The notes beneath the pieces are model-generated. The model was given only the letters and a program-made list of their open reading frames with translations. It was not told the origin of the DNA and made no database searches. DNA of 63,395 nt, counting the filler, from Craspedostauros australis (taxonomy: Eukaryota): NCBI GenBank assembly GCA_030167865.1. It is 5 parts of 5 records of this genome, joined end to end, with 100 filler letters (N's around TTAATTAATTAA, not from the genome) between each part and the next. Parts side by side here need not be neighbours in the genome. Positions count along the whole stretch, not along the records: positions 9,202 to 19,598 come from JALAGF010006570.1; 4 more parts are not named here. One strand, 5' to 3'. Below, piece after piece: positions 5,478-51,749 of this stretch (positions within the stretch are counted from its first letter, which is position 1; each line of letters starts with the position of its first letter). Position numbers and translations under genes: made by a program.

Positions 5478-8400
5478 GTGACGACCGCAGCGGGAATGCC
5501 CGGACGTGCACGTCCGGTGGCACCACAAGAGTCCTGTCCGTGTACAACCCACCCGACAGTGGAGCATTGCATCCGAAGGGCAAGAGTAACGACCAATAGC
5601 CAAGGCTTTATCATCCTAGACTCAGGGGCAGACGGAGACATCGTTCATGCATCGGGCTGGGAGGTGACCCACACACACCAACAAGAGTTTCGTGCCCAAG
5701 GGGCGACGATCAACTCACCAATCGAGACATTCCAGATGGTCGACGCGGTGGCAGCATACGAGCCCCCAACAGGCGGCGTGATCCTCATCAAAGCGAACTA
5801 CGTGGCTCTCAACAAGCATCCACAGCAGACGGAATCACTGTTTAACACACATCATATGCGCGCGTCCGGACTGAACGTCTACGATCGCCTAATCGAACAT
5901 CAGGGACAGCAGCGGGTCTCATCGGACGACATCAGCATACCGCTGGAGAACCATGAAGGCAACACGCTCCGAATTCCCATCAGAAAGCCGACATCCCACG
6001 AGATGGCAACGGCGCGGCATATCATCATATGCGACAGACATCAGCGTCTACGACGAAACACAGGTCGGGTCGATTTCACGCGAATCTTCCGACACCTTCC
6101 GCCACACGTGGTGGAGAAGACAATGGCGGCATCCACTCAGCTGGCGGATACTCCGATCGAGGCAGAGTCAAGGCTCATCCCGCGGCAGTATCGCGCTCAG
6201 CGAGCAGGAGTGCTGCAACCCAACAGGATCGACGGCAGAGTTGACACGGACACGTTCTTCTCTACGATTCAGTCCATCCGGCACTACAAGTGTTTCCAAC
6301 TATTCTCGCACCACCAATCGAAGTTCATCTGGGCGAAGCCACTGGGCCGCGAGGCCATGGCGCCAGGGGCGCTCACGGACTTCATCATCCGCATCGGCGC
6401 TCCGGACCTACTCGTATCAGACAATTTGCAGGTGCAGTCGGGCAAGGCATGGAAAGCGGTCACATCCCGCTATCTGATCAAGCACCAATTCACTGTGCCC
6501 ATGAATCAGAACCAGAACCACGCAGAACGGGCAATCGGCAATGTCAAGCGGCATGCATACCAGCTTCTGTGGGCCGCCTCGGCGCCACTCTCATTCTGGT
6601 GCTATGCTGTGCAACACGCGATCGACACATGGAACTACACGGCGAAGGCGAGCCTCCAATGGCGCACTCCAATCGAGATTCTTCGCGGCAACACTCCCAA
6701 CATCTCGATGTTTCGCTTCACGTTCTTCCAACCCGTCTGGTTCTTCGAACCCATGACCAAATTCCCCCACCATCCATTCAAGCCAGGATACTTCCTTGGC
6801 ATCGCGTGGAATCACAGCGATCCATTCACCTATACCATATGGTCACCACGAGGTGATGACGTCACGAAGGGCACCGCGCTTGTGCGCAACATTGTCAAGC
6901 CGCGTGTCGTCGAAGACGCCGTTCCTCCACACATCACCGACGCGGAGATCAATCGCATCGCTCGGCTCGATATCATCCACACCACTACGCGCGGCGAATC
7001 CGGCGAACGCGCCAGAACCAAGACGTTGCCGGCGGAACTCGCTCGACAGGTCCGCGAGGCCATCGACGCGATTGCTGTGCAGTCAGGGGCGGCGGCGGGT
7101 CCACCGGAGCCGGCGACACAGGAGGTCAGGGGCGTATCCGAGAATAACGCAACGCCAGCAGGCACGGCTGACCGATGGTTCGGTCAACCAAACATAATTC
7201 CCAACGACGGCAACAGGCCGGAACATAATGCACACGGCGTCATCTCCGATGACGACGGCGACGCATCCACGGGTAACATCTCTGAGGAGACCAATGACTC
7301 CGAAGTCACGGCGATGCCAGATCCTCCGGAGCACCGCTCTCAGGGGCGTGAGTCCTCTCTCATCGAGAGAGAGCATGACGAGCTGTTCCGAAATCAGGTC
7401 GAAAACGAGAAATCTGACGACTTGGCAATCAACTCCATCCTCAGCCACGCATTCAGAGACGGACATCTACACTTCAACGTGCAATGGTCCAATACTGAAA
7501 CGCAATGGTTTCGATATGACGTGATCCGAGCAGACCATCCCGAAATGGTAGCACGATACATCATTGACAACGAACCACGACGCGACGGCCGACACAATCG
7601 GCAATCGCAAGTCCTACTCAAGTGGGCGAAACATGCACTGCGAGCCATCAGGCGCAGAATCCGAAGAATCGAGCGAACTCGAGCCTTCGCCATGGATGAT
7701 GACGACAACATCATCATCATCAGACGAATCCGTCCAGGCAAGAAGAAGCCGAAACGAGACTACTTCGCCACTGTGTATCAATACGGTGTNGAGGTCCCAC
7801 GCAACATGAAACATGCATTGCAACTGGATGAGGCCAACGGGGATCACCAATGGAGAGACGCAGCGAAGAAAGAGATTGACGCATTGATCGAACTTGACTG
7901 CTTCACATTCCACCCATCAACGTACCAACCACCACCAGACTACCAGAGCACGAAACTCCGACTCATATTCGCGGTCAAGCAAGATCTGCGACGTAAGGGG
8001 CGCTTGGTAGCAGGCGGGCATCTCATCGAGCTGGCGGACAACATCCGAGTCTACTCTTCAACCGTCAAGTCGACAAGCGTCTGCATTCTTGATGCAATAG
8101 CAGACGCAAACAACCTGCAACAGCTATGTGGCGACGTCGGCAATGCATTTGTCAATGCATACACCAATGAGAAGATCTACGCGACAGCAGGAAAGGCATT
8201 CGACGACAAAGAAGGACAAGTCATTGTGCTCAAGAAAGCACTGTACGGTCTTTGGTCGGGCGCTCAACGATTCCATGCGCACTTCGCAAATACTCTCTCA
8301 TCAATGGGATTCACGCCATCAAGGCATGATCAGGATGTATGGATCCAGCGCAGAGACGACTCTGGCTCCGATTACATCTGCACCCACGTGGACGACTTCA

Positions 8401-10749: not shown

Positions 10750-10958
10750 TTTTGTCCGGTCTATCCATTCTGTCCGGCCGTTTTGTCCGGTCTGTCCGGT
10801 CATTTTGTCCGGTTTGTCCGGTCGTTCTGTCCGGTCTGTCCGGTCTGTCCGGTTGTTTTGTCCGGTCTGTCCGGTTGTTTTGTCCGGTCTGTCCGGTTTG
10901 TCCGGTCATTTTGTCCGGTCTGTCCGGTCTGACCTAGTTTCTCCGGTTTTGTCCGGTC
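10750..10958 (+). repeat. Tandem TGTCCGG(T/C)-core minisatellite (9-13 bp units)
   Basis: Roughly 18 copies of GTCCGG separated by short T-rich spacers. Confidence 0.85.
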
Positions 10959-12092: not shown

Positions 12093-13187
12093 GGCATCTG
12101 CAATACCGTTGACCCTCGTCCGCCTGCCATCGCAAGTACCAACTTGAGGTGTGAACCAATGCCTTGAACAAAGATGAAGCCACCAATGAAGCCACCGATG
12201 TGACTGCCTCTGTTGCTTGCGACCCATCTCATTTGGACTTGGCTGGTTGCCATCCCACTGCATTGCAAGCATCACCATCTGCGTGGGCAACAAGAGTCCT
12301 CAACACCAAATCAACATCACATTGCGTGTTGGGATGGGCTGACACGTTCAGCAATCAACAGGCGAAGCGATATCGTGCCGCCTCCACTGTTTCTGCCACA
12401 CGGACCACCAACACACAACACCCATGCGTGTTCTATCCATAGGCATGAGCACCGCCGTCTTGGCTCGTGACTTCCAGAGCATCGATGCTCAACCGAGGTG
12501 ATTGACAGGAACATCCGCCTCACAAATGAAGTTGGGAACACCACAAAGGAGGACATGTGGGNNNNNNNNNNNNNNNNNNNNNNNNNNNNNNNNNNNNNNN
12601 NNNNNNNNNNNNNNNNNNNNNNNNNNNNNNNNNNNNNNNNNNNNNNNNNNNNNNNNNNNNNNNNNNNNNNNNNNNNNNNNNNNNNNNNNNNNNNNNNNNN
12701 NNNNNNNNNNNNNNGTCAAGCTCTCTGGATGCTTGGACTGGGCTGGTTCGTCGGTTCCTGTCTTTCCGCCACACTGGCACTGATCGCTTCGAAGATTGGA
12801 ATGGATGGTGGTGTCAATAAGACGTAGTATGTGAATCAATGTTGTTCGCTAATATTTATGAGAGATTGCATTGATTAGCTGTGGAGTTGCGGTCANNNNN
12901 NNNNNNNNNNNNNNNNNNNNNNNNNNNNNNNNNNNNNNNNNNNNNGCTCATGGGCCATGGATCGCTGACCATGTGCTTCTTCTACCATACGGAAACTCTG
13001 TGTCAACCATGATCCGCAATACTGCGCTCACACTCTGCATGGGGTTGCTGGTTGGTTCGTTGGTTGATTCGTTGGTTTCTTCTGTTGCTCGTCAAGCTCT
13101 CTGGATGCTTGGACTGGGCTGGTTCGTCGGTTCCTGTCTTTCCGCCACACTGGCACTGATCGCTTCGAAGATTGGAATGGATGGTGG

Positions 13188-13375
13188 TGTCAATAAGACG
13201 TAGTATGTGAATCAATGTTGTTCGCTAATATTTATGAGAGATTGCATTGATTAGCTGTGGAGTTGCGGTCAGATCTCCTGCTGGTGTCTTGCTATGCTCT
13301 AGGAGAAAAGTGGGCGCGAGGTGCGCGCTTTGCGTACGCAGGGCAGACGGGTCACGAGTGGGACTAGAATCAATA
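13188..13375 (-). repeat. 3' LTR (TATTGA...TTGACA)
   Basis: Matches 18246-18433 and is bounded by the TSD and PPT. Confidence 0.95.
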
Positions 13376-16300
13376 CACCCTCGCGTAACTCCCAACATGC
13401 TTTGTCTTGCGTGTTTGCTGCTGTCTGGAGTCGGCTTGAGGTAGACTTCTCGCATTTTGCGATGATGGGCGGTCGGGTGATGCTTGGTGAAGTAGTCGGC
13501 GAGATTGTCTGATCCCGGTGCCCAGTATACGATGAACTGGCCCTGTTGGATGCGATCTCGCACCCAGTAGAAGCGCATATCCATTGCTCTGGTGCGTCGT
13601 TGCTTCATGGTCTTGTTCACAATCCCTGATGCGGTGGAATTGTCGGTTTTGATGGGTGTAGGCGGTTGCCGGTGTCCCAGTTCGTCTAGTGTAGTTCGCA
13701 GTGCGGCTGCGGCGGTGCAATTCAGGTAGAGTGCCCCGACTTCGGCCTCCGCGGCTGAGCTCATCACATGCTGCATTTTGTTGCAGACGGTGTGGATTGC
13801 GCCGTTGTTTGGCGGTGGGTGGGCGGGGGCCTTGGTGTTGTCTTTGGATTTGTTGCTGAGGTACATGTGTCCCCCAGCTCGGCTGCGTGCTTTCGGCAAG
13901 CTCAAGTATGAGGCGTCGCTGTCCACGTGCAGGACCATGTCGCTCGCGTTGTAGACGATGGTGGCTTCGGGATGGGATGCGCAGTAGTCGAGTAGCTGGT
14001 GGACTCGTTTCTGTGTGTTCCGTGTTGCATGTGCCTGCTGCGTCGCGATGTCACTGACGGCGGGCAGGATGGTTGGATCCACGGCTCTCGCGTAGTATAG
14101 TAGCGTTCCTACTATCTGTCGAATGCGGATGATTTCTTCGGCGGGGAGGACCGGTGCCGTATCATCCAGCTTGGGTTCTTGTGTTCGCGCGCCGTAGACA
14201 GGTGCTTCACATGGTGCTGGCGCATGCTGCGGTTTGGTGGGGAGGACGTGCTGGAATTTGTGTAGCGCTTTCTTGATGTATCCTGGCATGGACAGCTCGA
14301 CGGTGTGCTGTTCGTAGTTCCATGCCAGACTGACGCCGCAGTAGAGGTCACCGCTCCACTCGATTGTGCACTTGTAGATAGTTTGCAGGGCTGCGATGAG
14401 GTGCTGCGCGTGTTCCTTCCCGACGTATTTGACTCCGAAGTCGTCGACGACGAGTGTGAAGGTGACTGGTCTGTGGTCATGTTTCCACAGTCCTGGCGTG
14501 TGTGGCACCGGGCGGTATCCGAATTTGGCCAAGTGCTTCTGGAGTTTCACGTTGGCGATTTTGCCTGCTTGCGGTAGGCCGTACATTCCCTTGCGGACTT
14601 CGACGTACACATTGCCTTTGTGTTCGAGCTGTCGTAGTTGGTATTGTTCGATGACTTTCGGTGGTAGCATGGCGATCGGCATTCGCATGTACTCGTATCT
14701 GTTCATGTCTGTGTTGAGGTAGAAATCTTTGATGTCGATGGTCATGAATCGTGCACCTTGCGTGGAGACGACGCTGTTGAAGAGACATTTGGCCGTGGTG
14801 AGTTCGGCGGTCGGTGTGTGGACGTCGAAGGGGTAATCGATGAGGTTACCGCCGACGGTGAGTCTCGTCCGATGTGTCTCCGCTTTTTGTGGCCGTACGG
14901 CGCACACAATTCTGCCGTATGTGATGGTTCGGCCGTGCGGCACGGCCGATTTGGGCACGAAGAAAATTGTGTTGGTTGCTGCCGACGCCGGTATTCGCGT
15001 TCCAATGCCTTGTGCTAGCCGGCCGATCTCGTTTGCAAACGACTTGTACCACTGTTCTGGGGTGTGTCCGTGCACTTTGCCTGCAATGAGATGACGATAC
15101 TCATACGCTGTGCCCGTTCTCTCATCGATGACTGCGTTGGCGGTGTGTGCGTCCTGTGCCCACGTGCGTCGCTGGATGGCTCCCGTGCGTAGTCGCGTTC
15201 TCGGCGCTGTTGCTTGTGGCGCTGTTCGTGTGACGTTCGTTGCACTTTCGTCGTCGCTTTCGTCGTCGCCTTCGTCGTCAGATACTACGGGTGTTGCTGT
15301 GGGCACCCTCGGAGGTGGCCGCGTGATGGCTGTGACGGTGGTGTCCCGCGTGCGTGTTGGCACCCTCGGTGGTGTTTGCGTGGGCTTGCCCACCCTCGGA
15401 GGTGGTGCCGTCTCTGTTGATGTTACCGCTGTTTGGAATATCCGTTCAAGCTGTTCAAGGGCTTGGAGTTGTCGGTCTCCGATTGCTTGTACTGGCAGGA
15501 ATGGCGTTTGGAGCGCTGCGGCGAGGTCGCTTGCTGCCTTGATGGCCATGTCTGCATTTGTGGGCATGGGGATGGCGCACTTGCTTGGCGTGAGCTCGAT
15601 TGTGTCTGTGATGCGCGTTTTGCGCGTGCTAGTGCAGTACACTTTGTAGCATCTGTAGTGTTCCATGGCTGGGGACACATACCACCCTGGGGTTCCATGT
15701 GGTGCCCATGTGGCTCGGCTGCTCGGCTTGTCATGTACGATGGCTTTGGTTCCTGGTGGTGCCATTGGCGTTGCGTTGAAGTCGAAGTTGCCGTGCAGTG
15801 CATGATACGCGGAGATGTGTGGGTTGACGCGTGCCGGTCGCATCAGATTGAGGGTGATGTCACACTGGGGCAGGAGCTGGCACCATAGGTGTTGCGGGAA
15901 GGCTTCGTCGGCTGTCGCCAGACCTGCGATGAAGTGGTCTTTCCATGTGGATATAGCTCGTTCGGCTGCGTTGCGCCGGTGTATGCCCGGTGGTACGAGC
16001 TGGTATTCGATGCCTTTTGACTGGATGAGGTGCTTCAATTCGGCTGGCGCTTCGTTATCCAGGCGATGAAAACGTGGTGTCATTCCCCCGCGTAGGAGAA
16101 CCGACAAAAGTTCGTCACACGCCCGCGAGAGTTCCGATGCGTGACGGCTGCGCATTGGCCGTGACAGGATCGCGTTGGAATCTTGGTCATACATCACCAT
16201 GATGTATTGGTACCCGCGACTGGACGTGACGGGGAACCGGCCTGTTTGGTCGGTGTAAATTTTTCCGGTCGGTCGGTATACATCCATGTACACGTCTCGT

Positions 16301-17016
16301 GGTTCGTTGGCGTTCTTGGTGGACTGGGTGACGTTGTTGCAGTGTTTGCGTGTTGACTGCGTGTTCTGATATTTCTGGCGAAGGTGTCCAGTCGCAGTTG
16401 CCGCCGATGGTGGAAGGAACTTTTGCACCAATTGCTCGGTGAGGCCGGGCCACGAGGAGAAGAAACCTTTCTTGATGGCTGCCGTGAAAGTTGATACCGA
16501 GGGACTGAAGCAGCATTGGTGGTAATATTTGGCGAGCTCCATCTTGGTTGATGTGTGGTGGATGTGATTGGCCAAATTCGGCGACGCCGGCGTGGGCGGT
16601 TGTATGTTGATGCGATACATACCGTCAACTTGATGCCGACGTCCCGTGTGAATCGTGTTTCCGTTTTTCCGAATTCTCACGGCTTCTTGGTCGAAGTCCA
16701 CCGTCATGCCGTGGTCACACAGTTGGCCCACTGACACAAGTGCCGCGCTGGAAAGCTGCGGAAACACTCGTGCTGTGCACGCATGCTGCGGTACATTGGC
16801 AATGCTCACCGTGGCTTGGTGAGAGGATTCGATTGCGGATCCGTCGGGCAGGGCAACGGTCAACGGTTTGTCGTCAGGCTTTCGGCCAAGGCACGGATCA
16901 GCAGGGCGCAGGAAGTGACTTGTGCAACCAGAGTCGACTATGGCAAGGGCAGGATCACATGACGTTGTGGTAGTAACGGCGAACGTTACTTGTTTACTGT
17001 GCTCCTGCCGTGTTCG
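13225..17016 (-). CDS. pol: Copia Pol (protease-integrase-RT-RNase H), in frame with gag after one UGA; stop codon lies inside the 3' LTR
   Basis: IVDSGCTSH protease motif upstream of the ORF-track start; YTDQTG / RLDNE / NAAER (integrase); KGMYGLPQAG and LVVDDFGVKY (RT); VDSDASYL, KTDNSTA and NLADYFTK (RNase H). Confidence 0.95.
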   Translation of the reverse strand, partial: RTRQEHSKQVTFAVTTTTSCDPALAIVDSGCTSHFLRPADPCLGRKPDDKPLTVALPDGSAIESSHQATVSIANVPQHACTARVFPQLSSAALVSVGQLCDHGMTVDFDQEAVRIRKNGNTIHTGRRHQVDGMYRINIQPPTPASPNLANHIHHTSTKMELAKYYHQCCFSPSVSTFTAAIKKGFFSSWPGLTEQLVQKFLPPSAATATGHLRQKYQNTQSTRKHCNNVTQSTKNANEPRDVYMDVYRPTGKIYTDQTGRFPVTSSRGYQYIMVMYDQDSNAILSRPMRSRHASELSRACDELLSVLLRGGMTPRFHRLDNEAPAELKHLIQSKGIEYQLVPPGIHRRNAAERAISTWKDHFIAGLATADEAFPQHLWCQLLPQCDITLNLMRPARVNPHISAYHALHGNFDFNATPMAPPGTKAIVHDKPSSRATWAPHGTPGWYVSPAMEHYRCYKVYCTSTRKTRITDTIELTPSKCAIPMPTNADMAIKAASDLAAALQTPFLPVQAIGDRQLQALEQLERIFQTAVTSTETAPPPRVGKPTQTPPRVPTRTRDTTVTAITRPPPRVPTATPVVSDDEGDDESDDESATNVTRTAPQATAPRTRLRTGAIQRRTWAQDAHTANAVIDERTGTAYEYRHLIAGKVHGHTPEQWYKSFANEIGRLAQGIGTRIPASAATNTIFFVPKSAVPHGRTITYGRIVCAVRPQKAETHRTRLTVGGNLIDYPFDVHTPTAELTTAKCLFNSVVSTQGARFMTIDIKDFYLNTDMNRYEYMRMPIAMLPPKVIEQYQLRQLEHKGNVYVEVRKGMYGLPQAGKIANVKLQKHLAKFGYRPVPHTPGLWKHDHRPVTFTLVVDDFGVKYVGKEHAQHLIAALQTIYKCTIEWSGDLYCGVSLAWNYEQHTVELSMPGYIKKALHKFQHVLPTKPQHAPAPCEAPVYGARTQEPKLDDTAPVLPAEEIIRIRQIVGTLLYYARAVDPTILPAVSDIATQQAHATRNTQKRVHQLLDYCASHPEATIVYNASDMVLHVDSDASYLSLPKARSRAGGHMYLSNKSKDNTKAPAHPPPNNGAIHTVCNKMQHVMSSAAEAEVGALYLNCTAAAALRTTLDELGHRQPPTPIKTDNSTASGIVNKTMKQRRTRAMDMRFYWVRDRIQQGQFIVYWAPGSDNLADYFTKHHPTAHHRKMREVYLKPTPDSSKHARQSMLGVTRGCIDSSPTRDPSALRTQSAHLAPTFLLEHSKTPAGDLTATPQLINAISHKY

Positions 17017-18180
17017 TCAAGTGCTCGTGGGTGCCCCGTCGGTAGATCCTCCCATCGTGTTCTCGCGAGTGGCCTCCTGCTTGTGTCCGTGGGCTGGATT
17101 GTTGCATGTCGCGCTGGTGTGCGTCGGTGCTACCTTGTACCCGTGGGTCCAGCAGTAGGAGGTGAACTGCTTCTTGCGTCCCTTCTGCTTGGCGGGGCCG
17201 GTGTTGGCCATGTTGGCGCCGGCTTGGAGCTTCGTCACCATCGCGGTCAGCTCGGTCAGTTGCTGGACGAGGTTTGCGTTGCTGGCTGTGAGTTGGGCCA
17301 CGGAACTGCGGTCTGCTGCTGTGGCAGATGCGAGGTTGGCCAGAGCGTCGGCTGTCTCCTCGGCGGAGACAGCGGCATGCGCGCTTTGGTACCCTCCTGC
17401 GGCTGTGGCGATTTGGGTTTCGCGGTGGTCTTGGTGAGCTGCCGCGAAGTCCGCTTTGAAGCGGGTCCAAGTCTTATCGGCGGCACTGAGAGCGCGGAAA
17501 GATCGGCATGCTTCGGGGAATGCTTGTGTTTGGAAAACCAAGTTGTAGGCGACTGCCACGAGCTGGTGATTGGTGTAGGGCGTTTTGGCGGCAACCGCCA
17601 AATCGCGAGCTGTCTCGATTTGGGCGACCAGGACTTCGAAGGGTTCCGATGGGTTGAACGGAGTCTTCATGGTCTTGTCGTTTTTGTCGAGGTCTTGTGG
17701 GGTGATCTTGCCGTACGTGCTGTACAAGTGGTTCAAGATGTCGAGCGTGGATGCGTTGGCGTATCCGACGATGTTGTGCCGCAACGTTCGCACGTATTGG
17801 TCTTCGACGGCGCTGAGCAACTGCTGCTTGAGCGCGTTGTCCACAGCTCGGTACTCCTTCCAGAGGCGCTCCTGTTCTTTGTGGATGCTGGTGGCTGCGC
17901 TGATCTGGGCCGCGGTGGCTGCGTTCGGGATGTTTGGATGGGGTCCAGGGTTGGCTGGCACGACGAATGCGGTTGCTGATAGGTCTTGGTAGACCTCATC
18001 GGAGACGGTGAGCACCAGGTATCCAAGCTGTCCGTTGCCGAGGGGGCAGTGCACGGATGCTGCATTGGCGTTGAGTACTACGTTGAGCTCTGCGATGGTC
18101 TCGTAGGTTGGCACCCCGATGATGGGTTCGACGACGGCTTGCGGGAAGGTCGCGAGGATTTTCTCGTGGCTGTTGGCCAT
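17017..18180 (-). CDS. gag: Gag (387 aa) with a variant zinc knuckle
   Basis: MANSHEKILATFP...NANAASVHCPLGNGQLGYL...HLYSTYGKI...YCWTHGYKVAPTHTSATC...NTMGGST. Lies between the 5' LTR and pol. Confidence 0.9.
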   Translation of the reverse strand: MANSHEKILATFPQAVVEPIIGVPTYETIAELNVVLNANAASVHCPLGNGQLGYLVLTVSDEVYQDLSATAFVVPANPGPHPNIPNAATAAQISAATSIHKEQERLWKEYRAVDNALKQQLLSAVEDQYVRTLRHNIVGYANASTLDILNHLYSTYGKITPQDLDKNDKTMKTPFNPSEPFEVLVAQIETARDLAVAAKTPYTNHQLVAVAYNLVFQTQAFPEACRSFRALSAADKTWTRFKADFAAAHQDHRETQIATAAGGYQSAHAAVSAEETADALANLASATAADRSSVAQLTASNANLVQQLTELTAMVTKLQAGANMANTGPAKQKGRKKQFTSYCWTHGYKVAPTHTSATCNNPAHGHKQEATRENTMGGSTDGAPTST

Positions 18181-18245
18181 GGTGGCAAGGTTGGTGGTGA
18201 AGTTCTTGGTGGTCAAGATTTCAAATGGTGCTATTAGCGAACAAC

Positions 18246-18433
18246 TGTCAATAAGACGTAGTATGTGAATCAATGTTGTTCGCTAATATTTATGAGAGAT
18301 TGCATTGATTAGCTGTGGAGTTGCGGTCAGATCTCCTGCTGGTGTCTTGCTATGCTCTAGGAGAAAAGTGGGCGCGAGGTGCGCGCTTTGCGTACGCAGG
18401 GCAGACGGGTCACGAGTGGGACTAGAATCAATA
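18246..18433 (-). repeat. 5' LTR (TATTGA...TTGACA)
   Basis: Matches 13188-13375 and is flanked by the TSD. Confidence 0.95.
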
Positions 18434-20428
18434 GGTGGCCCCGGAATTTGTTGCTCCAACAACGAGTGATCGCTCCTCCTGGGGCTTGGCAAGGGGCTTG
18501 ACTGCAGTGTTGGCGCAATGGCGGAAGTGCAACTCCAGGAAAGATGAGAACGATAGCGTGATACGGGACGGTCGATAGAACCGCGCAGCAACTATGCTCC
18601 TCGTGGCTTCTCATCATGTCCCTCTTCCTTGTTCGCCATGTACTCTTCGTGGATGGTCTCTTCCACAAACTTGGATCAGCTGGCATCGGCACTGTCGCTT
18701 TGGATCTGCTTGGCAGTGTGACTTGGAGTAGAGTGCTCTGTGTGCGAATCCGGCGGCACGGTGACGACCGCACCGCGACGACCGCATGGCTTGTGAAAAT
18801 GGTGCTGCCATGTGTCCATTGTCTGCGCAACGAACCAACAACGATGCTCATGGCGGGGCATGGATGGAACCACGGACGTCCAATCTGCTGGTGAATGACA
18901 TCGGCAACATCCCTGTGCGTATGTACTGTAGAGAGCACACCAGAGTAGTCGTAGACAAGGAGGAGGTAGCGTGGAAGCAGTATCCAGCCCTGCAATCTCT
19001 TCAAACATCTGGTCACTTCATCACAGCGTTCCATTGGACACGCAGATATAGTACTGTGCCCTCATCCTCATCCGTAACCTTGTACAGGTCCATCATGAAC
19101 ATACGACTGTACTCGTCATCGATACAATCACTCTTGGCTCTCCCACTGCAAAACACCTGGATCTCCGTCATCAGTTGGGGGTTGTAGAATCAGTTTGCTT
19201 AAATCTAGATGAGTGGACATATCTTTCTCACTTTCAGCTGCCACTCTCATTGCTGTATCGTTCGACACCACGCAGTTGTGTTGATCAGCGAATATCAACG
19301 CATCTATCGTGGTGTCCTCTGTGAGATGCTTGNNGGCCAACTCTGCTTCAAGAACAAGCTTGAGTAGCCAGAAGCCGAACTCGTTGGCCACAAGGATCAG
19401 CTGTTGCCGATCGTCCTGCCCAGTGAGGATGGGAGTTGGCTGGTGAGAGGCATCTGCATCATGGTGAGCGCTGGTGTGAGCGCCAACATGAGTGCCGGTG
19501 TGAGCAGCAGCGTCGTCACGAACGCTGTCATTGAAGGATATCTTGGCTGTGTAGATGCATTGGAGGACGTATCGGATGTGTTTTGGTTGAAGATTGGGNN
19601 NNNNNNNNNNNNNNNNNNNNNNNNNNNNNNNNNNNNNNNNNNTTAATTAATTAANNNNNNNNNNNNNNNNNNNNNNNNNNNNNNNNNNNNNNNNNNNNTC
19701 CATCGGCGCGGCATGAAGTTGAACCCATTGTGGCGAGTGCCTCTCTCTATCTCCTTGTTCGATGCGGGTGAGCGGAAAGATCGGGAGGCATTTTCGATTT
19801 CAACCACAGATCATGATCACCTGAAACGGTGACGATCGTGAAGTCGCCACCTCGTTGGGTCTCTCTCTTCTTGTTGACAAGACCAATTGATACATCAATT
19901 GGTCTGCAGATATACATATTATATCATACATAATAAACGGAACATTGTATTCGATGTCAAGTTGCGATGTTGTATGAGCGTCTATCTGATGTGGGTCATC
20001 TGTAGTCGGAGTGTTGGGCCGATCCGTCCTCTTCCTAACTCTGCCATGTCCGGTTGATACCGAGCAAGTTCTATAATCACCTGTGTTGGCGACATGAAGT
20101 TTATCAATGACTGCGCAAACCACGATTCCGAGCACTCTTTCGCGAACGTCACCGTTTGTGTTCTGTTCTCACCAAAATGGTCACGCGCTGGGCGACATCC
20201 TCAGCTTGAGGCCGATCGCAGCTGCTTTTGTGAGTGACAACATGTTGAGCATGGTGGGAGAGCGGAGGAGGGTGGAGTGAGGATCCCATGTTCCGCTTCC
20301 GTTCGTCTCGTCCAGTTCTCGAGAATGGCATTCTTGTGACGACTGATCCCTCGACGGATACCGGACGTCCGTTATGATCTTGCTTTGTGGTATCTGTTGC
20401 TGCTCCAATCGTGGATGAACCAACAATA

Positions 20429-46059: not shown

Positions 46060-49000
46060 ATGAAGTTTGCAAGGAAGGGTGCTGTCTGGGCGTTGCTCGT
46101 ATCCGCCCTTGCCGCCATTCCCGCTGTGTACGCCCAAGGCGACGCGGTCGCGAACAGCGATGAACCCGCAACTGGCAGCGAGGTCTGTCCGTTGGACTAT
46201 GAGCTCCTCCATTCCACGGAAGGCGCCAGCTACGATCTTCCTCCCATCGAGATCGTCAGCCAAGGAAAGACCTTTGTCGAGTTCAAGGTCTACAACGTGT
46301 TTTCCACGGCTGGATCCATCAAGGAGATCTACACCGAGTACCAGGAGAACAACCTCGATNNNNNNNNNNNNNNNNNNNNNNNNNNNNNNNNNNNNNNNNN
46401 NNNNNNNNNNNNNNNNNNNNNNNNNNNNNNNNNNNNNNNNNNNNNNNNNNNNNNNNNNNNNNNNNNNNNNNNNNNNNNNNNNNNNNNNNNCTCTACGTCC
46501 GAGACCCAACCATCGACGCAACCATTGGTACTGGCAAGACCCCAGAGTGCTGCCATGCCGATTTGACCAACGGATATCCAACCATCAAGTTCACCTTCGT
46601 CCTCGACTGTGTGCCAACCTGTGACCCCACCCCGTTCGCAGTCTGCGGCAACGGAAAGCTCGAAACAGGCGAGCTGTGTGACGACGGCAACGACGTCAAC
46701 GACGACGGGTGCACCAACGAGTGCCTCCTCCCGAAGTGCGGAGATGGCATTGTGCAAGNCGACGAAGAGTGCGACATGGGCGCAGCCAACTCCAACAACG
46801 TGGACGCCGCCTGCACCGAAAGCTGCACAATCCCGAAGTGCGGAGATGGCATCCTCCAAGGCAACGAGGAGTGTGACGATGGCAACACCATCAACGACGA
46901 CAGCTGCTCGAACTCGTGCATCACCGAACGTTGCGGTGACGGCATGAAACAAGAAGGCGAAGAATGCGACGATGGCAACGACATCAACAACGATGATTGC
47001 ACCAACAAATGCAAATTGCCAATCTGCGGCGATGGCATCAAGCAAGAAGACGAAGAATGTGACGATGGNAATTCCGACGACGAGGATGGTTGCACATCTC
47101 AATGCAAGATCCTTGTTTGCGGTGACGGCATCCTGCAGGGAGACGAAGAATGNGACGATGGAAACAAGGTCAACAACGATGGATGCAGCGAAACCTGCAA
47201 ATTGGAGGTGTGCGGCGACGGCATCAAGCAGGACTACGAGGAATGCGATCGCGGATCGCAGAACTCCGACGGCCCCAACGCCCAGTGCACGAAGGATTGC
47301 AAGTTCCCGGTGTGCGGAGACGGCATCCTGCAAGGCGACGAAGAATGCGATGACGGCAACGATGTGAACGACGATGAATGCACCGGCGAATGTAAGTTGC
47401 CACGGTGCGGCGACGGCATCAAGCACAAGGGTGAGGAATGCGACGACGGAAACAACGACAACAGTGACGGCTGCACCAACCAATGCAAGAAGGCAGTCTG
47501 CGGCGATGGAATCATAGGACCAAACGAAGAATGCGATCGCGGATCGCAGAACTCCGACAACCCCAACGCCCAGTGCACGAAGGATTGCAAGCTCCCGGCA
47601 TGCGGAGACGGCATCCGCCAAAATGGAGAGGAGTGCGACGACGGAAACAAGAACAACGGCGACAGCTGCACCAACCAATGCAAGAAGGCACGATGTGGCG
47701 ATGGCATCGTCGGGCCTAATGAACAGTGTGATCTCGGATCCCAGAACTCCAACGGACCTAACGCCCGCTGCACTCTCGAATGTACCCGCCCCAAGTGCGG
47801 CGACGGCATCAAGCAGCAAGGTGAGCAGTGCGATCTCGGACCAAACAACTCCGACGCGACCAACAGCAAGTGCTCCACCACCTGCGAGCTCCCGCGCTGC
47901 GGTGACGAGATCCTCCACCCATCCAGAAACGAGGAATGCGATCTCGGCGAAAACAACTCCAACGGACCGAACACCAGATGCAACGCCAACTGCAAGATCC
48001 CGAAGTGTGGTGACGGCATCATCAACAAGCGACTGGGCGAAGAATGCGACAAGGGCAGCAACAACTCTGATGGTCCCAACGCGCAGTGTACCACCATGTG
48101 CACCCTGCCCACTTGCGGCGATGGTATCGTTCAAGGTGGCGAGGAATGCGACGATGGCAACGACGTCAACAATGACGGCTGCACCAACCAATGCAAGAAA
48201 GCAAACTGCGGTGACGGAATCATTCAGCCAGGTGAGGAATGCGACAAGGGTCCAGGCAATTCGAATGGACCTAACGCCCAGTGCACCACCACATGCAACA
48301 TCCCCAAGTGTGGCGACGGCATCAAGCACAAGAACGAAGAATGTGACGATGGCAACAACGTCAACAATGACAGCTGCACCAACACCTGCAAGAAGCCACG
48401 ATGTGGCGACGGAATCAAGCAGGCCAATGAAGAATGCGACATGGGGCGGCACAACTCGAACGCAGCAAACGCCCAGTGCACCGCAGACTGTACCATCCCC
48501 AAGTGTGGTGACGGCATCAAGCACATCGGTGAACAATGCGACGATGGAGACAAGGTCAACAACGACGAGTGCACTAACAACTGCAAGGTCCCAACTTGCG
48601 GTGACGGCATCAAGCAGAACGGAGAGCAGTGCGACGACGGCAACAAGAACAACGCCGATGGTTGCACCAACAACTGCAGACTCCCACGCTGTGGTGATGG
48701 CATCAAGCAAGCCAACGAGCAGTGCGACGATGGAAACAAGGACAACACCGATGGCTGCACCAACCAATGCAAGCTGGCTCGATGCGGCGATGGCATCAAG
48801 CAAGACAACGAACAGTGCGATCTCGGACCAAACAACAACAACGGCCCAAACACCAGCTGCTACACCGACTGCAAGGTCCCACGCTGTGGTGACAACCGTC
48901 TCAACAACAAAGCAGGCGAGCAGTGCGATCTCGGAGGACAGAACTCCGACGGTGCAAACACCAGATGCAACAAGAACTGCAAGCTCCCGCGCTGCGGCGA

Positions 49001-51749
49001 TGGCCTTGTCAACAAGAGGCTCGGCGAGCAGTGCGATCGTGGAGCACAGAACTCCGACGGCCCCAACGCCCAGTGCACCAAGGATTGCAAGCTCCCGGTG
49101 TGCGGAGACGGTATCCAACACAAGGATGAAGAATGCGACGACGGCAACCAAGTCAACAACGACAACTGCACCAACGAATGCACGAAAGTGCGATGTGGTG
49201 ATGGCATCCGCCAAAATGGAGAGGAGTGCGACGATGGCAACAAGAACAACAACGACAGCTGCACCAACCAATGCAAGAAGGCACGATGTGGCGATGGGTT
49301 CAAAGCACCCAACGAACAGTGCGACGACGGCAACACCAACAACAGCGACGGCTGCACCAACCAATGCAAGAAGGCACGATGTGGTGATGGGTTCAAAGCA
49401 CCCAACGAAGAGTGCGACGATGGCAACAATAACAACAACGACAGCTGCACCAACCAATGCAAGAAGGCACGATGTGGCGACGGCATCGTCGGACCTCATG
49501 AACAGTGTGATCTCGGACCTCACAACTCCAATTCCGCCGGTTCACGGTGCACAACCAAGTGCCAGAAACCAAGATGTGGTGATGGAATCCGCCAAAATGG
49601 AGAGGAGTGCGATGACGGCAACAACATCAACACCGACAGCTGCACCAACCAATGCAAGAAGGCACGATGTGGCGACGGCATCGTCGGACCTCATGAACAG
49701 TGCGATCTCGGACCTCACAACTCCAATTCCCCCGGTTCACGGTGCACAACCAAGTGCCAGAAGCCAAGATGTGGTGATGGCATCCGTCAAAATGGAGAGG
49801 AGTGTGACGATGGCAACAACATCAACAATGACAGCTGCACCAACCAATGCAAGCGCGCAAAATGCGGTGACGGCATCGTCGGACCTCATGAACAGTGTGA
49901 TCTCGGACCTCACAACTCCAATTCCGCCGGTTCACAGTGCACAACCAAGTGCCAGAAGCCAAGATGTGGTGATGGAATCCGCCAAAATGGAGAGGAGTGC
50001 GACGACGGCAACACGAGGAACACCGACAGCTGCACCAACCAATGCAAGAAAGCACGATGTGGCGACGGCATCGTCGGACCTCATGAACAGTGTGATCTCG
50101 GACCTCACAATTCCAATTCCGCCGGTTCACAGTGCACAACCAAGTGCCAGAAACCAAGATGTGGCGATGGTATCCGCCAAAATGGAGAGGAGTGTGACGA
50201 TGGCAACAACGTCAACACCGACAGCTGCACCAACCAATGCAAGAAGGCACGATGTGGCGACGGCATCGTCGGACCTCATGAACAGTGTGATCGCGGCTAT
50301 CACAACTCCAATTCCCCTGGTTCACAGTGCACAACCAAGTGCCAGAAGCCAAGATGTGGTGATGGAATCCGCCAAAATGGAGAGGAGTGTGACGATGGCA
50401 ACACGAGGAACACCGACAGCTGCACCAACCAATGCAAGAAGGCACGATGTGGCGACGGCATCGTCGGACCTCATGAACAGTGTGATCGCGGCTATCACAA
50501 CTCCAATTCCNCCGGTTCACAGTGCACAACCAAGTGCCAGAAACCAAGATGTGGTGATGGTATCCGTCAAAATGGAGAGGAGTGCGACGACGGCAACACG
50601 AGGAACACCGACAGCTGCAGGAACGACTGCAAGAAGGCACGATGTGGTGATGGGATCGTTTCAACTGGCGAAGAGTGCGACGACGGCAACAATAACAACA
50701 ATGACAGCTGCACCAACGAATGCAAGAAGCGTGATACCGTATGCCCGGAGGTGAAGCTCGACTTCAACGACTATCCCAGTACAGGATTCATCTATGACGA
50801 GTGGTGGGGATCCAAGGGTGTCAAGGTGATCGCGAAGGCCAACAACAGGTACGCCGGATACACCCCCCGACCACGATCAGGATGCCGATCTGGATCACTC
50901 ACCTGCTACTGCAAGGACTGGAAGACCAGCCGCCCTACAAGCTGCCCACACTGGCAGAACACCAACAGCGGCGGAGGAGCTGCCCGTGTGTTCGACACAT
51001 GGAAACCAAGAGGATACCACAGCGGTACGTACGAGGAGCGTAAGGGATGGAACAACCCACTCTGCAATCCCAACGACGAGTACGCTGGAGATGACGACTT
51101 GGGCACACCCAACAGATCCTGCGGTGGCCCTGGTGTCGGCGACGGAGGCAAGAAGGGCAGGAAGTACCAGAACTGCCAAAAGCTCGGCAGAGTCCTCATC
51201 ATCCAGGAGGGCAAGAAGACCTGCCCAGACGACGTCGGCTCCCCAGGAGGAACCATCTCTTTCGAATTCGACACCGCCAGGCTCGGCGGAGTCGAGGTCA
51301 CACTGGGCAAGTTCATCGACATCGATGACGGACGCACGAACCCGATCGTCGACTTCACAGAGGTCGGCAGGTCAAGCCCAACTCCCGGGCTCCGGAAGTA
51401 CACCCAGCTCACAGGAGGCAACGGAGTTTTCGACCTCAGGGTCTCCGTCAAGAACGTCAGACGCGTGCAGATCAGCTACAAAGGATCCGGCTGCATCGCC
51501 GAGGTGCGCTTCCGCCCCAGCAAGTGCTCGCGACGTATGCTGCGTGTTGAGGAAGGCGAATCGTTCAACCTTGGCAACTACACCAGCACCGAAGAGTATG
51601 ACGACTTCCAGGACGACTACGAATCGGAATTCATCCAGTTCGGCGGCGCAGCGCAGGGTCATCAGTACGAAGAGACTGAGCCAGCCATTGACACCGACCA
51701 CGTCGTCTACCCCGAGGAGGCTGAGAACATGTTCCCCATGGATGCATAA
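46060..51749 (+). CDS. Large secreted protein (~1,900 aa) with about 40 Myxococcus-type cysteine-rich (DUF4215-like) repeats
   Basis: Signal peptide [25 protein letters not shown]. The frame after the N gap is open from 46491 ([24 protein letters not shown]), so the two ORFs are probably one gene. Repeats are CGDG-x6-CDDGN-x4-D-x-C-x3-C. The C-terminal domain is non-repetitive. Confidence 0.88.

Follow-up and report, generated by a model that had tools for sequence, protein, structure and literature searches.

Organization of the element

The window, by which we mean the whole 63,395-nucleotide stretch of Craspedostauros australis DNA that was analysed, filler included, contains a single copy of an LTR retrotransposon, which lies on the minus strand (Table 1). 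In a repeat search of the window the two LTRs (18433..18246 and 13375..13188) proved to be 188 nt each and 100% identical, and the CCACC found on both flanks of the element constitutes a 5-bp target-site duplication. The leader between the LTR and the gag ATG is 65 nt long. Gag matched no Pfam family. In pol, Pfam models matched SH3_retrovirus at residues 369-419 and RVT_2 at residues 664-870, the latter with 30.8 bits against a curated cut-off of 31.6 (E 2.8e-7), a score below the cut-off that suggests a distant Copia branch. Many pol relatives carry precomputed PF07727, and the Atlas neighbours of pol are RVT_2 / 'Ty1/Copia family' clusters (0.98). The protease motif, the integrase-type SH3 and RVT_2 stand in the Copia order of protease, integrase, RT and RNase H, with integrase before RT, and the two LTRs and 5-bp target-site duplication of Ty1/Copia elements (Pseudoviridae) are present. 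An earlier note on this DNA had called the element an intact Copia, a description borne out by the identical 188-nt LTRs, the CCACC duplication, and gag and pol in one frame. We consider it probable that this is a recently inserted, apparently autonomous retrotransposon of the Ty1/Copia type that supplies its own minus-strand primer.

Table 1. Features of the retrotransposon and their positions in the window
Feature	Position	Strand	Remarks
Target-site duplication CCACC, 5 bp, upstream copy	18434..18438	-	matches copy at 13183-13187
LTR retrotransposon, LTR to LTR	13188..18433	-	LTR pair and target-site duplications
5' LTR, 188 nt	18246..18433	-	starts TATTG, ends TTGACA
CTCAT, portion of conserved CTCAT(A/T)A	18292..18296	-	candidate initiator or poly(A)-signal-like hexamer
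Arm1, TATTAGCGAACAAC	18275..18288	-	proposed self-primer within LTR
Loop, last 29 nt of 5' LTR	18246..18274	-	terminal CA
Arm2, GTTGTTCGCTAATA	18232..18245	-	candidate primer-binding site, first base is LTR+1
Remaining leader as far as gag ATG	18181..18231	-	without TGG
gag ORF, 387 aa	17017..18180	-	ATG at 18180; in-frame TGA at 17019-17017
pol, frame shared with gag, continues into 3' LTR	13225..17016	-	DSG protease motif, integrase-type SH3, RVT_2
Polypurine-tract-like GCGAGGGTG	13376..13384	-	directly before 3' LTR
3' LTR	13188..13375	-	second arm1 copy at 13217-13230, without arm2
Target-site duplication CCACC, downstream copy	13183..13187	-	

Several features of the coding region and termini deserve mention in their own right. 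The LTRs begin with the dinucleotide TA, not TG (18429-18433 and 13371-13375, minus strand), and relatives start TGTTG or TGTTA; the two TA-starting LTRs are identical, and the target duplication around them is intact. The frame of pol crosses the polypurine tract GCGAGGGTG, which encodes RGC, into the 3' LTR (13225-13384, minus strand) and ends at a TAG inside the arm1 copy of that LTR (TAT TAG CGA). The motif G(C/A)(G/A)AGGGTG precedes the 3' LTR in six of the related loci introduced below (L006, L008, L053, L059, L074 and L062). Gag and pol share one frame with a single in-frame stop between them, which in the window is TGA (17017-17019, minus strand), and of 18 elements inspected for this layout of gag, stop and pol, 13 have it, the window's included (the others being L001, L006, L008, L013, L018, L021, L023, L029, L030, L031, L032 and L066). 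In these elements a protease D(S/T)G motif lies 30-90 codons past the gag stop. This recurrence suggests that Gag-Pol may be produced by stop-codon readthrough, and the in-frame stop fits the description of the diatom CoDi elements, in which gag and pol are said to be separated by one stop or frameshift or by none (PMC2806351).

Other repeats were also observed in the window. A 181-nt block at 12715-12895, which is flanked by runs of N (12562-12714 and 12896-12945), is identical to 13091-13271, a segment that takes in 84 nt of the 3' LTR, and was probably duplicated during assembly next to the gaps. At 10750-10952 there is a tandem array of short period, in which spacings of 9 and 13 nt alternate and the unit resembles GTCCGGTCT. 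Large arrays of diverged repeats, with spacings of 93, 195 and 288 nt, extend over 46671-50796 and are possibly a repetitive coding region.

A perfect stem between the LTR and the sequence that follows it

On the minus strand, the 14 nt past the 5' LTR (18245..18232) are the perfect complement of 18288..18275 within the LTR, so that the element strand reads, in order, CTCATAAA, TATTAGCGAACAAC, 29 nt ending in TTGACA at the LTR end, GTTGTTCGCTAATA and GCACC. The stem is exactly 14 bp long, as the next pair outward is A opposite G. The earlier note had reported a 14-nt perfect complement with a 29-nt loop closing at the terminal CA, the lack of a TGG-type primer site, and a TCAT initiator-like motif upstream; all of these were recovered, the complement at 18245..18232 / 18288..18275, the 65-nt leader containing no TGG, and the motif as CTCAT at 18296..18292, 3 nt before arm1. 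Its figure of at most 29 nt for R-U5 was loose, since arm1 and the rest of the LTR after it together make up 43 nt, and 29 nt is the length of the template for strong-stop DNA.

When up to one mismatch was allowed, the 14-mer occurred four times in the window, and the element accounts for all four occurrences: each LTR contributes its arm1, a third match is the assembly duplicate at 12841-12854, and the fourth is arm2, which lies on the opposite strand. Shuffled sequences gave a chance expectation of 0.01 matches. Folding of the RNA corresponding to 18296..18170 yielded the hairpin, with an MFE of -27.6 kcal/mol and a z of -5.9, and none of 200 shuffles folded as well. Neumann et al. (PMC6317226) describe an in-silico criterion for self-priming by which at least 10 bp of the 5' LTR should have their complement at a site that starts 0-5 bp past the LTR, and the 14-bp complementarity at offset 0 falls within it.

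A perfect complement in a single element might have arisen as a chance or copy-specific event without function, such as a template-switch scar or an artefact of assembly. The assembly is indeed imperfect beside the 3' LTR, where 12562-12945 contains runs of N and the duplicated 181-nt block; the hairpin, however, belongs to the 5' LTR and is remote from those gaps, and the number of matches expected by chance is far below one. Taken together with the evidence from relatives that follows, this makes an accidental origin extremely improbable.

Relatives in aquatic metagenomes

More than 2000 relatives of pol were found among public metagenome proteins, with 53-74% identity for the best 120. An alignment of 37 pol relatives was used to scan metagenome contigs, and 531 of 603 metagenome stretches encode a pol relative; the best 80 of these 531 form the locus set L001-L080. 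Viral contigs scanned with pol contained no relative. A blind list drawn up over the 80 loci held 69 perfect stems of at least 10 nt with loops of 12-90 nt, the large majority of which showed (C)TCAT(A/T)A, then arm1, then a loop ending in CA or TA, and then arm2.

In order to avoid selecting loci by their stems, we anchored the loci on gag. The window gag matched in 41 loci by tblastn, and its N-terminus with at least 150 nt upstream was located by tblastn at 35 places in 34 loci. Of the 310-nt windows ending at gag, 30 of 35 contained a perfect stem of at least 10 nt with a loop of 12-90 nt, compared with 8 of 509 other 310-nt windows of the same loci, the loci including some close kin (for example L006/L041, L015/L018, L047/L066 and L053/L055). 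Stem length in the 30 was 10 nt in four cases, 11 nt in nine, 12 nt in eleven, 13 nt in five and 14 nt in one. Among these, the best stem of L035 lies outside the canonical context, and L053 and L055 are without the CAT motif and have a fold-back loop of 74 nt. The remaining places comprise three with stems of 8-9 nt in canonical context, under the 10-nt threshold (L014, L033 and L061), one with an 8-nt stem in doubtful context (L003), and one in which the gag-anchored upstream window held no stem (L002). The recurrence of the same architecture with different sequences in the windows of relatives speaks against an event peculiar to the Craspedostauros copy.

One of these contigs, L066 (7.1 kb), carries two hairpins of the family with different arms, at 966-1037 and 6200-6260, each followed by a gag start; these could represent adjacent elements or a chimeric assembly.

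Position of the stem at the LTR end

The site that adjoins the 5' LTR is by definition the site of the minus-strand primer. In the window the LTR ends are set independently of the hairpin, because they are given by the identical 3' LTR and the CCACC duplication. The first base of arm2 is LTR+1 in the window, and the same holds for each of the five loci with an unambiguous LTR end defined by repeats (L006, L059, L074, L021 and L053); target duplications confirm the LTR ends in L006 (CTCCT) and L074 (ATAAG). The long repeats of L001, L016 and L031 were rejected as LTRs, being duplications internal to pol. L062 was set aside as ambiguous, since the repeat there overshoots the expected LTR end by 18 nt and takes in arm2. 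The 3' repeat copy in this locus (L062:5876-6081) holds arm2 and 5 nt further before diverging, an extension that could reflect a tandem element, a recombinant, or a chimeric assembly or assembly path.

Covariation of the two arms

The earlier note had read the complementarity as a candidate case of self-priming and had proposed covariation in relatives as its test; that reading is supported, as both arms change together and none of 500 shuffles equals their pairing. A MAFFT alignment of 16 loci with loops of 36-41 nt (A2), in which the inner arm ends align without manual help, showed 10 of 11 pairs altered on both sides and 87% of cells paired, a value reached by 0 of 500 shuffles. With slid partners, only 27-40% of the cells of A2 were paired.

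A model built from A2 (R1) was used to search the 80 loci and the window, and 29 sites were found at E <=0.01, 13 of them outside the seed. In the alignment of these 29 sites (A5), where fitting to R1 leans towards structure, 11 of 11 pairs were altered on both sides, 98% of cells were paired and there were 112 double changes. The covariation score of A5 was 0.865 versus 0.163 in shuffles, and A5 with slid partners was 23-52% paired; on four of five measures 0 of 500 shuffles equalled the alignment, and on the fifth, pair types, 10 of 500 did so. The window site fell short of E 0.01 in the pooled search. When the window alone was searched unfiltered, its top match was 18298..18227 (21.4 bits, E 0.083), and all 11 model pairs are standard in the window hairpin. 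Two MAFFT alignments that included the window (A3 and A4) were rejected as tests, because the varying offset of arm1 from the CAT motif puts them out of register; in A4 pairing was 45% at slide 0 and 66% at slide -3.

The diversity of the arms is best seen in the canonical set, which is defined by stem and motif, the loci having been picked partly for their stems. Its 40 primer sites (stems of at least 10 nt, the window's included) contain 36 distinct inner 10-mers, so that no one conserved host RNA could fit them all. The arms of one locus pair with each other at 10 of 10 positions, and arms of different loci at 4.4 of 10 on average. The site starts with G in 37 of the 40 and with TGG in none, and the loops are 19-57 nt long with a median of 40. 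We conclude that the complementarity is real, far beyond chance, and kept by covariation across a large Copia family, which also contradicts an origin by accident.

A hairpin of this kind might nevertheless be a structural RNA element close to the primer site, the true primer being a host RNA; it could correspond to the U5-IR/U5-leader stems of avian retroviruses, or to a signal for packaging, dimerisation or translation. Hairpins that assist priming beside primer sites are known, namely the stem-loop of Rous sarcoma virus and the conserved hairpin site of the fungal GalEa elements, as described in PMC5445492. We regard this explanation as unlikely for the present family. Arm2 stands at LTR+1 in six of six cases with an independently defined LTR end, and a hairpin with another role would have no reason to start there every time. 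The sequence of the primer site is unconserved, as the number of distinct 10-mers shows, and a tRNA cannot covary with each element. A tRNA primer site beginning with TGG was sought and found neither in the 65-nt leader nor at any of the 40 family sites. The 14-mer presumably fits neither the 3' end of a tRNA acceptor and T-arm nor an anticodon arm, which counts against a host-RNA primer. No tRNA gene with which the 14-mer could be compared turned up when the window and 20 of the 80 loci were scanned with ARAGORN, and Rfam gave no matches at 18100-18500. Self-priming is favoured instead, because the primer site varies from element to element, is always matched by the element's own LTR, and faces the 3' end of arm1 at U5+1.

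A conserved motif before arm1 and the predicted ends of the RNA

Across 39 relatives, the 50 nt that precede arm1 share a single conserved motif, CTCAT(A/T)A; no conserved TATA box or other upstream promoter motif was found from -50 to -3. The T of the motif precedes arm1 by 1-6 nt, with a mode of 3 nt (14 of 40 canonical stems) and a value of 4 nt in the window, and a weakly conserved TTA.CA is present in the loop. Kadono et al. (PMC4686930) proposed TCAH+1W as an initiator-like motif of diatoms, and since CTCAT(A/T)A fits this motif, transcription is predicted to start 1-6 nt before arm1 and not at its first base. The predicted start would be close to the strict Tf1 arrangement, not identical with it, and under the Tf1 scheme a start upstream of arm1 would leave an unmatched 3' tail on the plus-strand strong-stop DNA.

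CTCAT(A/T)A also resembles what we take to be a poly(A) hexamer, CAUAAA. It is tempting to speculate that the motif serves both ends of the RNA: in the 5' LTR it could work as the initiator and, left out of the RNA at its 5' end, it could provide the poly(A) signal from the 3' LTR. In that case R would be only about 10-25 nt long and strong-stop DNA 19-57 nt. Neither poly(A) nor poly(T) was present at contig ends among the 80 loci, and no contig among the 80 starts at arm1, so that the contig ends are uninformative on the ends of the RNA.

A proposed mechanism of self-priming

From the arrangement of the sequence we think it quite likely that reverse transcription of this element is primed by a tract of its own LTR in a manner similar to Tf1. 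Transcription would start in the 5' LTR at arm1 or a few nt before it, just past CTCAT(A/T)A. The first 14-18 nt or so of the RNA would then fold back across the 29-nt loop and pair with the 14 nt past the LTR, as the observed complementarity permits. The RNA would be cut at the 3' edge of arm1, possibly by the element's own RNase H as in Tf1. In the stem, the last base of arm1 stands opposite the first nucleotide past the LTR, a geometry that fits self-priming. The freed 3'-OH, paired to the first base past U5, would be elongated by copying of the loop, and the product would be a very short strong-stop DNA. A host tRNA would not be required.

In the general retroviral scheme the primer is copied during synthesis of plus-strand strong-stop DNA. 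In the present element this step may copy the primer back into the primer site and so renew the complementarity in each cycle. Such recopying would explain how the arms can differ between elements and always match within one, and why stems would be perfect in young copies.

A possible variation is that the primer is encoded by the element and acts in trans, coming not from the 5' end of the same RNA but from the copy of arm1 that lies in the 3' R, on that RNA or on one packaged with it, or from a short LTR transcript. Arm1 is present in both LTRs, the predicted start leaves an overhang of 1-6 nt that is unexpected in the strict Tf1 scheme, and the CAUAAA-like hexamer followed by the weakly conserved TTA.CA could put the 3' end of an RNA near arm1. 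However, nothing pointed to an RNA 3' end at arm1, none of the 80 contigs carries a poly(A) tail, and fold-back in cis is simpler and has a proven precedent in Tf1. We therefore consider priming in trans unlikely and prefer fold-back of the 5' end of the same RNA.

Significance

Retroelement lineages are defined by, among other traits, the way in which their reverse transcription is primed. To our knowledge, proven self-priming is confined to the Tf1/sushi branch of the Gypsy elements, and among Copia elements we know of self-priming only as an in-silico prediction for one plant lineage. The present family appears to be a second, distant Copia lineage, abundant in aquatic metagenomes, that shows the same architecture with unusually clear covariation; the lineage is apparently not the plant one, and evidence from a whole family is stronger than complementarity in a single element. 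Independence from host tRNA could ease the spread of such elements between hosts. For annotation, the combination of CTCAT(A/T)A, a tract of 10-14 nt, a short loop ending in CA and then the complement of the tract may be used as a marker, and LTR finders that demand a tRNA primer site would miss or misjudge elements of this type.

The observations also bear on whether hairpin priming is ancestral in LTR retrotransposons. That self-priming is general, and possibly ancestral, in a very large and divergent Copia clade of aquatic protists, possibly with a minimal 5' end, is a tentative suggestion on our part that may well prove too broad. The idea that self-priming by a hairpin came before tRNA priming in LTR elements has been raised in PMC3601003, and self-priming throughout such a clade, if true, would be independent support for it.

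Comparison with known systems

Self-priming is established for the Tf1/sushi elements, which are Ty3/Gypsy chromoviruses (Levin 1995; Lin and Levin 1997; cited in PMC6317226 and described in PMC5445492). The window element resembles them in that the primer site directly follows the 5' LTR and forms a perfect complement to part of what is transcribed from that element's LTR, in that the 3' end of the primer pairs with the first base past U5, and in that the sequence of the loop is free to vary. It differs in being of the Copia type, with integrase before RT and an RT matching RVT_2, and with the predicted start there may be 1-6 unpaired nt ahead of the primer tract; the fold-back loop of the family, 19-57 nt in the canonical stems and 74 nt in L053 and L055, is a further point of difference. 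Membership of the Tf1/sushi group itself, in which integrase follows RT-RNase H, was considered and rejected on the grounds of the Copia domain order and the RVT_2 match.

The words 'tRNA', 'priming' and 'hairpin' do not occur in the paper that defined the diatom CoDi elements (PMC2806351), where 'PBS' stands only for the buffer. In a search of freely accessible papers, without their supplements, no account of self-priming was found for Copia elements of diatoms or of the CoDi groups.

Other Copia elements dispense with a primer site that starts with TGG. Half-tRNA priming is reported for copia, Ty5, Osser and Bianca (PMC6317226), and the sites of these elements are likewise not TGG-initiated. 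However, they are described there as matching an internal part of a conserved tRNA and as being conserved within the lineage, whereas the sites of the window family differ between elements and match each element's own LTR. The fungal GalEa elements (Donnart et al. 2017, PMC5445492) are a Copia lineage that has no tRNA primer site. As in the window family, a hairpin stands in the place of the primer site; in GalEa it is conserved and lies past the LTR. According to the account in PMC5445492, both arms of the GalEa hairpin lie past the LTR and are conserved and palindromic, no complementary tract having been found in the LTR; in contrast, the window family has one arm inside the LTR, and its arms vary and covary.

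A parallel is found in plants. The earlier note knew of no described Copia example but could not exclude one, and a precedent is in print as a prediction: self-priming was proposed for the plant Copia elements Houba and Osr-1 and predicted for the TAR lineage (Neumann et al. 2019, PMC6317226). TAR and the window family both belong to the Copia superfamily and both fall within the in-silico criterion of that study (PMC6317226). The relatives of the window element, unlike those of TAR, come from aquatic metagenomes, and for the window family the complementarity of arm1 and arm2 is documented by covariation across the family.
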